A stretch of 64,000 nt of DNA from a virus (taxonomy: Duplodnaviria; Heunggongvirae; Uroviricota; Caudoviricetes). The stretch lies in the IMG/VR virus record IMGVR_UViG_2718218360_000002. One strand, 5' to 3'. Numbering within the stretch: position 1 is the stretch's first letter; every line of letters begins with the position of its first letter. The position numbers were made by a program. This document shows positions 15,001 to 18,000 of this stretch, one piece after another.

Positions 15001-18000
15001 AATTTTTTTGCTGTGCGCCAGTAAAAACCGCCTTTAATCCCAAGGCGTTTTCTGACTTTGTCATTTTTGGCTTCGTAATACAGTGCAATTTCTTCTTTAT
15101 CAGTGCTCATTGATAAACCTCATAACTATTTTAAGGTTGTACGAATCCCTGCTATTGCTGGCATGCTTAATCAACGGGTATGGCGTTAATACGGCTGGCG
15201 GGTTATCCAGCCGGTATTTCGTTATTCAGGTACAGCGATACTTTGTTTAACGGGAGACATTCACCGGAAATTTTTTGCTCGTCTCTTGCCTGATGGCAGG
15301 ATTCTTTACTGGCATAAATTCCGGTAATCACATTCTGTGGCTCACCTGTTATAAGAAAAACCGTCATCATCAGTGCAAACGCTGAACTCACTGCTGCCCT
15401 CCGAAAATGCCAAGTTCAAGAAGGGCAATTCTGGAGAGTATGGAATTATCATTGAGAAGATAAGGCTCATATTTTCTCATCCTGATGGCGTCTTCAGTAA
15501 ACTCCCGGTTACTGAGCAGAATACCAATATTAAAACACCCTTCAGACGTATTAACGTTTGGTAGTGACGTTTCCATTATCGCGTCCTCAACAATGAATTT
15601 TGTGATGCGGTGCCTGGTGCCTCCAGGTGACGTTAACCAGTTAACAATTAACGCCGGATACAGAGAATCCACCCATAACACTGTTTTTGGTTTTAACTGT
15701 TCCGCGTGCGCTCAGCCGCATTCACCACATCACAAAATTCACTTTAAAAAGGGCGGCAGAGCAGTCACGGAGTAAAACTGATACCGCCAAACGTCACCAG
15801 AAAATTGATAACAGAGGGCGTTGCAGCGGGGTTGTCACTTAAGCGTATGGTCAGCCTGACAACCCGGTGTCCTCAAGGGGAAGGAATAACCCCGCCATAC
15901 TTACCGCCGCGCCATTTCGCGGATTGCCACAACCAGAAGCGCACGGTCGAAGAAATTTAACGGCAAGACTTATATGCAAAGGGATCTCGCCGTGCGCTTT
16001 CGTGTTATGCCCTGACTTTTCAGGGTAAATTAACCTGTGGAAACCTGTTTTTACTGGCGCTAATCAGTTAGCGTTTCTGGCTAACCAGCGATGCGCGGCA
16101 GCTTCGGTTTTAAACGTTTTACTTTTGGTATACGTCATCGCGGTAAACGTGCCGTCCTGATTGGGAAACACGCCACATACCAGAGATTCGTTGTTGCCAA
16201 GATTGAGCGTATCCATGTTGACCTCATTTGCCCTTAACGCCGGGGGGGGCGGAACTAAGACCTGTCGCACCGTTGTGCTTTGATGGGATATATTGTTCTC
16301 TTAAGATGAACATATGTCAACATTGTGAATGCGCAAGAGGCAAAAAAAACCGCCTTCCGGCGGTATTGTTTTGTAAAATAAAGAATTATTTTTGTCGCGT
16401 TATTGGGTCAACGTATTCTGAGTAAAATTCGGTCAGTTTTTGAAGGCGCATTTGAAAAGCTGCCAGCATATTTCTACGCTCTACAGGTGGCAGGTTTCTG
16501 TAAACATCAAGCAGGGCTTTCTCATCATCATCAAGCGCCTCTCTGTTTGTATCTTCTTTTCCTGTCAGTAGCCAGGAAAGGGAAACATTTGTCGCTTCTG
16601 CAATTTTGGCTGCGGAATCTTTACTGATTGTCCCTCTTTTTTTCCAGGCGTTGACTGATGAGCGTCCTACACCAGCGATGCGCGCTAAATCTGAACCGCT
16701 TAAATGATGCTGTTGCGAGATCGTATCTAACCTTTCTGCCAGCGGGGTGTCGTATTGCTTTTTTCTCATGTCCATTTAGCAATTATAACCGTTCAGTGAA
16801 CACTAACAATTCCTCGTAGTGTTGACTTATGTTCTCTTTAAGTGAACAATGTTGTGGCTGATTGAATTGGAGGTTGTATGACAGCATTGGACAAGGCAAT
16901 AAAGATTGCTGGTGGTATTCGTCCGCTAGGGCGTGCAATAGGGGCTTGGCCGTCTCAAATACACAAATGGGCAAATGAATACAATGGTCGAGTGCCGACA
17001 GGGGAGCGGGTTCGTCAAATTTATATTGCAACTGGGGTGACTCCTCATGAATTGCGACCAGATTTATATCCGAATCCAACCGACGGGTTGCCTGCTGGAG
17101 ATAAGGCTAACACACAAAATACACCGGAGTTGATTCATGAAAATCAAGCATGAACACATCCGCATGGCGATGAATGCCTGGGCGCGTCCTGATGGCGAAA
17201 AAGTTCCAGCAGCTGGAATAACCCAGGCTTATTTTGAGTTGGGTATGACGTTCCCAGAACTGTATGACGACAGCCATCCGGAAGCCCTGGCTCGCAATAC
17301 CCAGAAAATTTTCCGCTGGGTAGAGAAAGACACCCCTGATGCTGTTGAAAAAATGCAGGCTCTGTTACCGGCGATCGAAAAGGCGATGCCGCCTTTGCTG
17401 GTGGCCCGTATGCGCAGCCACAGTTCTGAATATTACCGTGAGATCGTCGAACGGAGGGATCGGCTGGTGAAGGATGTCGATGATTTTGTTGCGTCAGCGG
17501 TTGTTTTGTATGACCAGATGAATCGCGGCGGCCCGGCAGGGAATGCTGTGGTGATGCACTAAAAGCACGGTGTTCGGGGGTTTTATGAGCAGCAAGCTTC
17601 ATGGTCTTGTCTGGGAAGGGTGCGCCTTCACCGGCATGATCTTATCCAGGGTGGCGGTTATGGCCCGTCTTGCAGACTACAGCAATGACGAGGGCGTGTC
17701 ATGGCCTGCCATTGAAACTATCCGGCGTCAGATCGGTGCAAGAAGTGAATCCACAGTGAAATCGGCTATTGCAGAACTGGCGAAAGAGGGCTGGCTGACG
17801 AAGGAAGAGCGTAAGGTCGGTGGGCGTAACGTAAGCAATATCTATCGGCTTAATGTGGAAAAACTTGAAGCAGCTGCAGCGGCGGCGCGTGAGGCATATA
17901 AACCAAAAAGAAAAATTAGCCAGGCAAAAAATGACCCGTCAAATATTGCCCCCTCAACGGTTGGCCCGTCAAATGTTGATGGATCAACTGTTGATAAAAA

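Follow-up and report, generated by a model that had tools for sequence, protein, structure and literature searches.

Does the early-left region of this prophage encode a complete division-inhibition operon of the kind known from E. coli K-12's Qin prophage, and what would such an operon do in a pathogen? dicBF operons in E. coli prophages and their multiplication in EHEC are already published, as are the roles of DicF in cell division, pchA/LEE regulation and stx2 regulation, and the exclusion of ManYZ-using phages by DicB. The dicF-dicB cassette described here is a genuine example of this well-known prophage biology. Small division inhibitors are also made by other prophages: lambda Kil and Rac KilR are products of PL-operon genes that lie between the immunity region and exo-xis-int; they are silent in the lysogen and toxic once derepressed. 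DicB resembles Kil and KilR in its early-left placement, but the proteins are unrelated in sequence and the kil operons have no sRNA partner.

A compact Qin-type operon in an O157:H7 prophage

All positions refer to the window, the 64-kb stretch of viral DNA that was analysed. An initial annotation had proposed that its minus strand carries a Qin-type dicBF early-left operon. An ORF scan and searches of Rfam, Pfam and NCBIfam identified the repressor gene, a ydfA-like gene, dicF, dicB and a ydfD-like gene between 15203 and 16775 on that strand, every part intact and located where the proposal had placed it (Table 1).

Table 1. Features of the dicBF operon and its control region
Feature	Position	Strand	Remarks
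ydfD-like gene (DUF1482), 62 aa	15203-15391	-	Pfam PF07358, 53.8 bits (cut-off 25)
dicB, 62 aa	15388-15576	-	Pfam DicB (PF05358), 115.7 bits (cut-off 27)
Structured dicF-dicB spacer (dicB 5' UTR)	15593-15742	-	STnc100-core-like fold
DicF sRNA, 53 nt, with terminator hairpin	15751-15803	-	U-tract 15746-15750
DicF precursor leader, conserved	15804-16028	-	Takes up ~225 nt of the 260-nt ydfA-dicF gap
Unique junction, ~35 nt	16029-16063		Where K-12 has ydfB and ydfC
ydfA-like gene (DUF1391), 50 aa	16064-16216	-	Pfam PF07151, 102 bits (cut-off 27.3)
PL-like promoter (dicBp-equivalent), TTGACA-17-AACAAT	16292-16320	-	Consensus scan
Second exact operator, TGTTCATCTTAAGAGAACA	16294-16312		Overlaps PL-like promoter
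Intrinsic terminator, ACCGCCGGAAGGCGGT then T8	16341-16364	-	Downstream of repressor gene
Repressor ORF, 129 aa	16386-16775	-	RefSeq start at 16769
Predicted repressor promoter (PRM-like), TTGTTA-16-TATAAT	16782-16809	-	Consensus scan
PR-like promoter, TTGACT-17-AACAAT	16822-16850	+	Drives YdaS-type cro
Operator TGTTC-N9-GAACA, exact inverted repeat	16830-16848	.	Within PR-like promoter
YdaS-type cro gene	16878-17153	+	Behind PR-like promoter

Gene order and orientation are those of the K-12 Qin locus, dicA-dicC / ydfABC-dicF-dicB-ydfDE, and the order dicA-ydfA-(ydfBC)-dicF-dicB-ydfD bears out the proposal. The YdfA, DicB and YdfD families are common to both loci, and in each a cro-like gene diverges from an upstream repressor gene whose product lacks a peptidase domain. 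Between the RNase III stem and the start codon of dicB, the two are about 99% identical over ~370 nt. Besides the divergence of DicB and YdfD, there are four differences. First, the ydfA-dicF interval is ~720 nt in Qin and contains ydfB and ydfC, whereas here it is about 260-263 nt and both genes are missing. Second, the immunity type differs, the present locus having a YdaS/YdaT-like repressor-cro-cII set and other operators. Third, ydfD is followed here by an intact gene for an 814-aa exonuclease and then xis-int, in contrast to ydfE, IS2 and intQ in Qin. Fourth, Qin encodes Rem, and tblastn with Rem detected no homologue, and hence no Rem-type antirepressor, in the window. A 92-aa ORF at 23087-23365, considered as a Rem gene beside hokD as in Qin, has no similarity to Rem. 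Similarly, K-12 ydfE was considered as a remnant of the 814-aa exonuclease and has no protein similarity to it.

The operon is flanked by exo-xis-int on one side and by the immunity region and cro-cII-O-P on the other, in a lambdoid O157:H7 prophage integrated at ompW. A 2.1-kb region is 100% identical to many E. coli O157:H7 chromosomes whose RefSeq annotation names dicB, DUF1391 and DUF1482, which rules out a match by chance; dicF is left unmarked by PGAP at the identical locus. The exact 2.1-kb combination is present in 66 of 5426 genomes. The prophage also carries nleG, espM1 and a PerC-family gene, as expected from its description as a pathogen prophage with effector and regulator cargo near the module. 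No tandem repeats were found in 15000-17300. We conclude, with a probability of about 0.9, that this is the early-left (PL-type) operon of an O157:H7 prophage at ompW, and that it is a compact dicBF allele of the Qin type.

A control region of a different immunity type

The repressor had been described as DicA-like. By layout it is: the protein has HTH domains and no S24 peptidase domain, and its gene diverges from a cro-like gene and lies directly upstream of the dicB-operon promoter. Its architecture, an N-terminal CI-type HTH followed by a short helical C-terminal part, is reflected in matches to Pfam Phage_CI_repr (47.8 bits) and HTH_3 (34.2 bits) and in its assignment to PHROG transcriptional repressor families. 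However, the protein is only 26% identical to K-12 DicA (110 aa aligned; E = 5e-7), and it scores 38.7 bits against the NCBIfam DicA model (NF007257), for which the cut-off is 101, placing it outside that subfamily. Its partners are a YdaS-type Cro and a CII-like YdaT-family protein instead of DicC/YdfX. In position and architecture, the repressor is the analogue of DicA; in descent, it is a distant homologue and not an orthologue.

The DNA of the promoters and operators shows no similarity to that of K-12. Since K-12 likeness begins only at 16256, downstream of these elements, the control region represents a different immunity type. The immunity region contains two exact copies of the operator, each over a promoter. 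The same pattern with at most one mismatch occurs seven times in the 64 kb, with 2.4 occurrences expected. An operator scan also identified a weak site with two mismatches at 16790-16808, overlapping the PRM-like promoter. We predict that the repressor binds the TGTTC-N9-GAACA operators. The -10 element of the PRM-like promoter is separated from the ATG at 16775 by 7 nt, a spacing that suggests the repressor mRNA may be leaderless. Transcription from the PL-like promoter is predicted to start near 16285.

DicF and its precursor leader

The sequence assigned to DicF matches the Rfam family (RF00039) with 76.7 bits, well above the gathering score of 48 (match 15751-15802; E = 3.6e-15 for the 64-kb window). 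The match covers the full covariance model, every pair is canonical, and the terminator hairpin is formed. All 53 nt are identical to K-12 dicF, as are the U-tract and the ~170 nt beyond it, so that the alignment to K-12 leaves both seed and terminator unchanged, in agreement with the suggestion that this is DicF with its terminator. This variant is the commonest among the surveyed loci (71 of 128 copies). In K-12, processing yields a stable ~53-nt DicF RNA, which represses ftsZ (PMC10448788), and ~53-nt processing and ftsZ repression are also reported for EHEC copies of DicF (PMC7873438). Because the sequence is identical, there are strong grounds for expecting this copy to act on ftsZ as the K-12 RNA does.

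DicF lies within the ydfA-dicB operon, behind a processing leader. The ydfA-like gene upstream, which had been recognised as such, encodes a member of PHROG 751 that is identical to K-12 YdfA at 41 of 51 residues. Between this gene and dicF, a gap of ~260 bp had been noted in which hairpins, and no convincing ORF, take the place of ydfB and ydfC. Both genes are indeed absent, with no counterpart to ~3165-3654 of the K-12 locus (L002), and the gap is strongly structured (MFE z-score -4.1). It is the shortest ydfA-dicF interval among 89 loci surveyed. Sequence comparison indicates that the gap is mostly conserved DicF precursor leader, which accounts for the hairpins. This leader is 92-99% identical to K-12 (92% for L002 3655-3882) and, across 101 unique loci, is conserved from -225 onward, with a dip confined to the apical loop. 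It includes a long stem with arms at ~15986-16000 and 15937-15951 and a variable apical loop at 15964-15983, in which indels among homologues are not multiples of three. The sole minus-strand ORF in the gap, 15851-15979 (TTG start, 42 aa), was considered as a hidden gene. It is unlikely to be coding since it sits in the precursor leader and its first codons, the only ones to do so, extend into the apical loop with its non-triplet indels.

RNase III and RNase E process the K-12 DicF precursor, and the RNase III cut yields a 190-nt DicF species (PMC10448788). By analogy, the long leader stem is predicted to correspond to the K-12 RNase III site, with the 5' end of the 190-nt species near 15940.

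Is this operon still under selection? The prophage is probably defective: its portal gene is frameshifted and a DUF968 gene has an internal stop. Moreover, the genome that matches the window exactly contains six copies of the DicF core, which makes any single copy redundant, and such O157:H7 genomes carry four to six. In RNA-seq of EDL933, which lists DicF_1 to DicF_4, three of the four copies have 0-5 reads (PMC5331693); the spacing of the sok and STnc100 neighbours in the EDL933 table does not fit the present copy. The decay, the redundancy and the low read counts would be expected if the module were an inert relic in a decaying prophage, never meaningfully expressed and adding nothing to the other dicF copies. 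We consider this improbable. The module has kept its four ORFs, its two promoters with their operators, the terminator of DicF and the processing stem intact. Furthermore, the DicF core is 97-100% identical over 101 unique sequences despite shuffled flanks, which argues for selection rather than decay.

An STnc100-like fold in the dicB leader

The dicF-dicB spacer is nearly invariant and is identical to K-12 at 173 of 174 nt. It folds into a 20-bp closing helix (15723-15742 with 15593-15612) around four hairpins, with an MFE of -64.2 kcal/mol (z-score -5.4). It also carries the invariant core motifs of the prophage sRNA STnc100, GGUGAAU and UCACC-UGGAGGCACCAGG-CACC. Against the Rfam STnc100 model (RF02076), which it matches over the full length, the spacer scores 38.4 bits (E about 6e-7), short of the gathering score of 47; its K-12 counterpart reaches 34.4 bits. 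In an alignment of 84 sequences, 26 pairs make up five helices and 94.5% of cells are paired; the search pattern had fixed the inner part of helix 1 as well as helix 5. The corresponding values are 78% for shuffled controls and 37-48% for slid controls. The covariation score of the alignment is 0.453 versus 0.151 in shuffles, and none of 500 shuffles reaches 0.453. Covariation thus supports a five-helix core shared by the spacer and STnc100. This resemblance looks to be unreported so far.

The spacer shares the five-helix core and invariant motifs with the prophage sRNAs STnc100 and PasD, but it has neither a promoter nor a terminator of its own, its closing helix is much longer, and it lies within an mRNA leader, with the dicB start codon coming next. 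Hence, it does not have the properties of a free-standing sRNA. A true STnc100 is encoded at 27334-27534 in the same prophage. STnc100 was also considered as the IpeX RNA of DLP12; the quuD-nmpC-essD region of K-12 DLP12 contains no STnc100 match at E <= 0.01.

What might such a leader do? One possibility, to which we assign slightly less than an even chance, is that the spacer, here and in K-12 Qin, is more than a passive linker: it would belong to a large phage RNA family supported by covariation, that of the STnc100/PasD core, and serve as an mRNA leader. Its closing helix, either cut by RNase III or gating translation, would then keep DicF apart from the dicB message and control the amount of DicB. 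A different function would be processive antitermination in cis, of the kind known from HK022 put, allowing polymerase to read on into dicB-ydfD-exo-xis-int. In favour of this, the early-left operon has no recognisable N gene, the spacer RNA is conserved and structured, and members of the STnc100-core family are also found ahead of late and lysis genes, frequently just upstream of a terminator. However, the spacer is downstream, not upstream, of the DicF terminator. HK022 22000-34000, which spans the immunity region with putL and putR, contains no STnc100 match and none of the invariant motifs. Finally, STnc100 accumulates as a terminated sRNA (PMC5331693), indicating that its own terminator is not suppressed. 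The put-type function is disfavoured, and we regard it as very unlikely.

Expected activities of the operon

The 62-aa product had been named DicB, and the family assignment stands: in addition to its Pfam match, it scores 102.2 bits against NCBIfam NF049927, just above the cut-off of 100, with residues 1-62 aligned to profile positions 1-62. It represents the second allelic type, to which 24 of the 93 complete loci in the survey belong, and is identical to K-12 DicB at 36 of 62 residues (58%), the N-terminal half being conserved. The K-12 protein affects MinC and excludes phages through ManYZ (PMC6832061). With 58% identity to the protein that was tested, these activities are not guaranteed; DicB may share them, and the case for this is weaker than that for DicF. 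The small gene downstream belongs to the DUF1482/YdfD family. It has a GTG start that overlaps the dicB stop codon at 15388-15391, and its product matches PHROG 1092 with 114 bits and is identical to K-12 YdfD at 29 of 63 residues (46%). The stop codon of the gene is spanned by a hairpin at 15192-15213.

How the repressor binds, how the RNA is processed and what DicF, DicB and YdfD do can be inferred from the K-12 and EHEC literature as follows. In the lysogen, the CI-type HTH repressor would silence both the PL-like promoter before ydfA and the divergent PR-like promoter from its TGTTC-N9-GAACA operators. When repression lapses, transcription from ~16285 would pass through ydfA and then the leader of the DicF precursor. 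RNase III would cut the conserved long stem ~137 nt upstream of DicF, and RNase E would trim the product to 53-nt DicF. Most transcripts would end at the DicF hairpin and U-tract, and read-through RNA would bear the structured spacer, dicB and ydfD. DicF would then pair with host mRNAs (ftsZ and manX in K-12, pchA in EHEC), DicB would redirect MinC to block Z-ring formation and would impair ManYZ, and YdfD would be a lysis protein.

Is blocking division or excluding phages the role for which the operon has been selected? That role could instead be virulence regulation, DicF activating pchA and LEE and lowering stx2 at low oxygen. Published work on EHEC points in this direction: four dicF copies and effects on pchA and stx2 are described (PMC7873438), and the copies of Sakai, 86-24 and EDL933 (Melson and Kendall 2019, via PMC7873438 and PMC10448788) are like the present one in organism, type of prophage location and sRNA. 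The prophage region around the module also contains T3SS effector genes and a PerC-family regulator. However, pchA is absent from the 64-kb window. Pairing of DicF with the leader of the PerC-family gene in the window (31676-31990), although predicted by RNAduplex at -42.2 kcal/mol, is not above background, since 38% of random 260-nt targets are as good or better. Moreover, virulence regulation is compatible with our main explanation, as an extra output of the same RNA. We hold selection for virulence regulation to be a possible but doubtful account, with odds clearly below even.

Significance

For annotation of these prophages, dicF should be marked, the repressor should not be named DicA, and the ydfA-dicF interval should be treated as DicF precursor rather than as an empty gap. 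An STnc100-like dicB leader would connect a widespread family of phage RNAs with an operon that is classic and well studied, and the K-12 dicB leader offers a tractable system for learning the role of the STnc100 RNA core. If the spacer is indeed an STnc100-core leader, phages would use one RNA module in two ways, as a free sRNA and as a leader acting in cis.

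The dicBF module and its likeness to K-12 Qin

We read the minus strand of 14800–17400 and listed its ORFs. The layout (see table) bears out the YdfA-like 50-aa gene, the 62-aa DicB and the small gene downstream of dicB that had been proposed from sequence alone. RefSeq labels dicB, DUF1391 and DUF1482 here and leaves dicF unannotated, and every base pair of the DicF match is canonical. A GC-rich hairpin (15192–15213, CGGCTGG...CCAGCCG) spans the ydfD-like stop codon, where the minus strand has no U-tract; it may be the 3ʹ end of a transcript that reads through ydfA-dicF-dicB-ydfD; the K-12 counterpart stops after ydfD.

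Features of the module and of its surroundings in the window
Feature	Position	Strand	Evidence or remark
int	11245–12375		one flank of module, with xis and exonuclease
Exonuclease, 814 aa	12666–15110	−	downstream of ydfD
ydfD-like ORF, 62 aa	15203–15391	−	DUF1482 (YdfD), 53.8 bits; overlaps dicB ORF
dicB ORF, 62 aa	15388–15576	−	Pfam DicB 115.7 bits; NCBIfam 102.2 bits (cut-off 100)
dicF–dicB spacer, 174 nt	between DicF and dicB	−	
DicF	15751–15802	−	Rfam curated threshold: 76.7 bits (gathering score 48), E 3.6e-15
ydfA–dicF stretch, 260 nt	between 16064 and DicF	−	no credible ORF
ydfA-like ORF, 50 aa	16064–16216	−	DUF1391 (YdfA), 102 bits
PL-like promoter site	16292–16320	−	sequence reading
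Intrinsic terminator, then T8	16349–16364	−	sequence reading
Repressor ORF, 129 aa	16386–16775	−	CI-type HTH; Phage_CI_repr 47.8 bits
sok antisense RNA	22233–22407	+	111.7 bits
hokD toxin gene	22402–22557	+	
STnc100	27334–27534	+	150 bits
AgvB sRNA	27537–27598	−	96.5 bits; identical to model consensus

Alignment to the cryptic prophage Qin of K-12 showed DicF to be identical at 53 of 53 positions, and its U-tract is identical too; thus, neither seed nor terminator differs. Very few positions differ between ~15950 and the dicB start codon. Identity is 85% for the DNA of ydfA and the proximal leader, 41/51 residues for YdfA, 36/62 for DicB (the conserved half being N-terminal) and 29/63 for YdfD. 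A segment of ~490 nt comprising ydfB, ydfC and ~110 nt beyond is present only in K-12, and the window has a 35-nt junction (16029–16063) in its place. The initial observation is therefore confirmed and its interpretation supported, with three refinements that concern the repressor, the ydfA–dicF gap and the functions of the module, which we infer by homology.

The finding of this module is correct, and it was already known, since four dicF copies have been described in EHEC Sakai and 86-24, with DicF raising pchA/LEE and lowering stx2 in EHEC at low oxygen (PMC7873438; PMC10448788), DicF_1 to DicF_4 are listed in RNA-seq of EDL933 (PMC5331693), and DicB confers protection from ManYZ-using phages (PMC6832061). 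Of 5426 complete E. coli genomes, 4555 carry the 251-nt DicF core (median 2 copies, maximum 10), and six copies are present in the genome that is an exact match to the window.

A distinct immunity region

The alignment found no DNA similarity to K-12 Qin upstream of 16256, and the promoter, operators and repressor are therefore of another immunity type. The proposal of a DicA-like repressor holds for size, position and architecture (HTH plus a short helical tail, with no S24 peptidase domain). Because identity to DicA is only 26% over 110 aa, and the NCBIfam DicA model scores 38.7 bits against a cut-off of 101, we do not call the protein DicA and treat it as a DicA-like analogue and distant homologue.

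The immunity region contains two copies of an exact inverted repeat, TGTTC-N9-GAACA, one at 16294–16312 within the PL-like promoter (TTGACA-17-AACAAT) and the other at 16830–16848 within a divergent PR-like promoter (TTGACT-17-AACAAT). At 16790–16808, a third copy that carries two mismatches overlaps the -35 of the repressor promoter, TTGTTA-16-TATAAT. This is the geometry expected if a single repressor closes both early promoters, and we predict that the repressor binds at these sites. No Rem-type antirepressor (Rem being that of Qin) was found within the window. The -10 of the repressor promoter (16782–16787, minus strand) ends 7 nt ahead of the ATG at 16775, so the mRNA may be leaderless; the lambda cI mRNA from PRM is leaderless. 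RefSeq starts the repressor at the second ATG, 16769.

The ydfA–dicF interval is mostly a DicF precursor leader

The initial annotation described a ~260-bp gap with hairpins and no convincing ORF. Both points stand, and the gap can now be identified. We gathered 128 DicF-containing stretches (seven genome contigs, 120 from IMG/VR and the window) and aligned the 101 unique sequences. Conservation begins sharply at -225 from DicF (window 16028), and identity is 84–100% from there across DicF and the entire spacer and on into dicB, apart from a single dip at 15964–15983. The dip corresponds to the apex of a long stem with nearly invariant arms (~15986–16000 and ~15937–15951); the loop occurs in several unrelated versions of differing lengths, which makes a hidden ORF unlikely. 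In K-12, RNase III generates a 190-nt DicF species that RNase E trims to 53 nt (PMC10448788). The position 190 nt upstream of the DicF 3ʹ end falls in the 3ʹ arm of the conserved stem, near 15940; hence, the hairpins are the known DicF processing leader.

In 89 loci, ydfA and DicF lie 263 to 1375 nt apart (median 827), and the window is one of three loci at the minimum. This makes the interval a variable cassette site, of which the window has the most compact form. The position homologous to 16029–16063 (minus strand) is hypervariable in surveyed loci L004–L130. Among 93 complete loci, ydfB was detected in 56, ydfC in 50 and neither in 33. DicB and YdfD fall into two allelic types, the window's being present in 24 of the 93.

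Prophage context

Many E. coli O157:H7 chromosomes match the module's 2.1-kb region at 100% identity, and mapping onto strain FRIK2455 places the window's lambdoid prophage at ompW. The prophage is probably defective, since RefSeq records a frameshifted portal gene and an interrupted DUF968 gene. Effector and regulator cargo had been placed beside the module; the PerC-family gene does lie in the prophage, within its late region, and the T3SS effector genes nleG and espM1 are near but outside, directly beyond the boundary.

The flank of the module opposite int carries a YdaS-type cro, a CII-like YdaT-family gene and O/P-like replication genes. The 814-aa exonuclease has an Exonuclease VIII (RecE) N-terminal-type region (residues 56–189) and, on its C-terminal side, an Rv2179c-like 3ʹ-5ʹ exoribonuclease domain (residues 633–804); in K-12 Qin its position is filled by the unrelated ydfE. 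The sok and hokD genes occupy the nin-like region, which is also their place in Qin, but here they have no rem or relBE beside them. Two 19-mers each reappear unchanged 58961 nt further on (2893–2911 and 61854–61872; 4876–4894 and 63837–63855). An IS66-family element, ISEc8, is annotated at 2726–5038, and the constant offset suggests a second copy near the window's right end.

An STnc100-like fold in the dicB leader

In a permissive Rfam scan over the 2.3-kb region, the dicF–dicB spacer (15593–15742, minus strand) matched the sRNA family STnc100 (RF02076) over its full length at 38.4 bits, under the gathering score of 47 (E ~3e-6 per 2.3 kb). The K-12 Qin spacer (~3944–4093 of its locus, L002) scores 34.4 bits. 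A true STnc100 lies in the same prophage. It is convergent with AgvB and ends 2 nt from it, and the pair sits between DNA methyltransferase and SASA-family esterase genes, upstream of the lysis cassette.

Folded separately, the spacer and the STnc100 core have the same architecture of five helices, a closing helix enclosing four hairpins. The spacer has a 20-bp closing helix, and its fold (-64.2 kcal/mol, z-score -5.4) greatly exceeds shuffled controls in stability. Both RNAs contain GGUGAAU and UCACC-NGGAGGCACCNGG-CACC, and their last hairpins differ by a compensatory swap of U-A to G-C. A pattern scan of IMG/VR yielded >120 further elements, and we aligned 84 non-redundant elements, 11 of them additional variants of the spacer type. 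In the RNAalifold consensus, 15 of the 26 pairs show compensatory changes; 94.5% of cells are paired, against 78% in shuffles and 37–48% in slid controls, and the covariation score of 0.453 (0.151 in shuffles) was reached by 0 of 500 shuffles. The search pattern itself fixed helix 5 and the inner half of helix 1, so the independent signal comes from helices 2–4 and outer helix 1. Together, these data support a fold shared by the spacer and the STnc100 core, backed by covariation.

Family members with no DicF association are mostly ahead of holin/lysis genes, and a T-run follows 49 of 126. Two or three STnc100-type elements occur close together or in tandem in IMG/VR contigs L139 (2316–3360), L145, L183, L196, L243 and L149, each element carrying different variable hairpins. 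An HK022 put-type antiterminator identity for the spacer element failed, as did a link of STnc100 to IpeX, an RNA of the K-12 prophage DLP12. A recent preprint ties STnc100 to PasD sRNAs and does not mention dicF or dicB; we found no link between the STnc100 fold and the dicBF operon in the literature, including two of the three papers that name both STnc100 and DicF.

Our most economical guess is that, within the dicBF operon, the long closing helix could gate the processing or the translation of dicB. In a module that is otherwise known, the STnc100-like dicB leader holds a small reserve of interest, and one that is cheaply testable in K-12.
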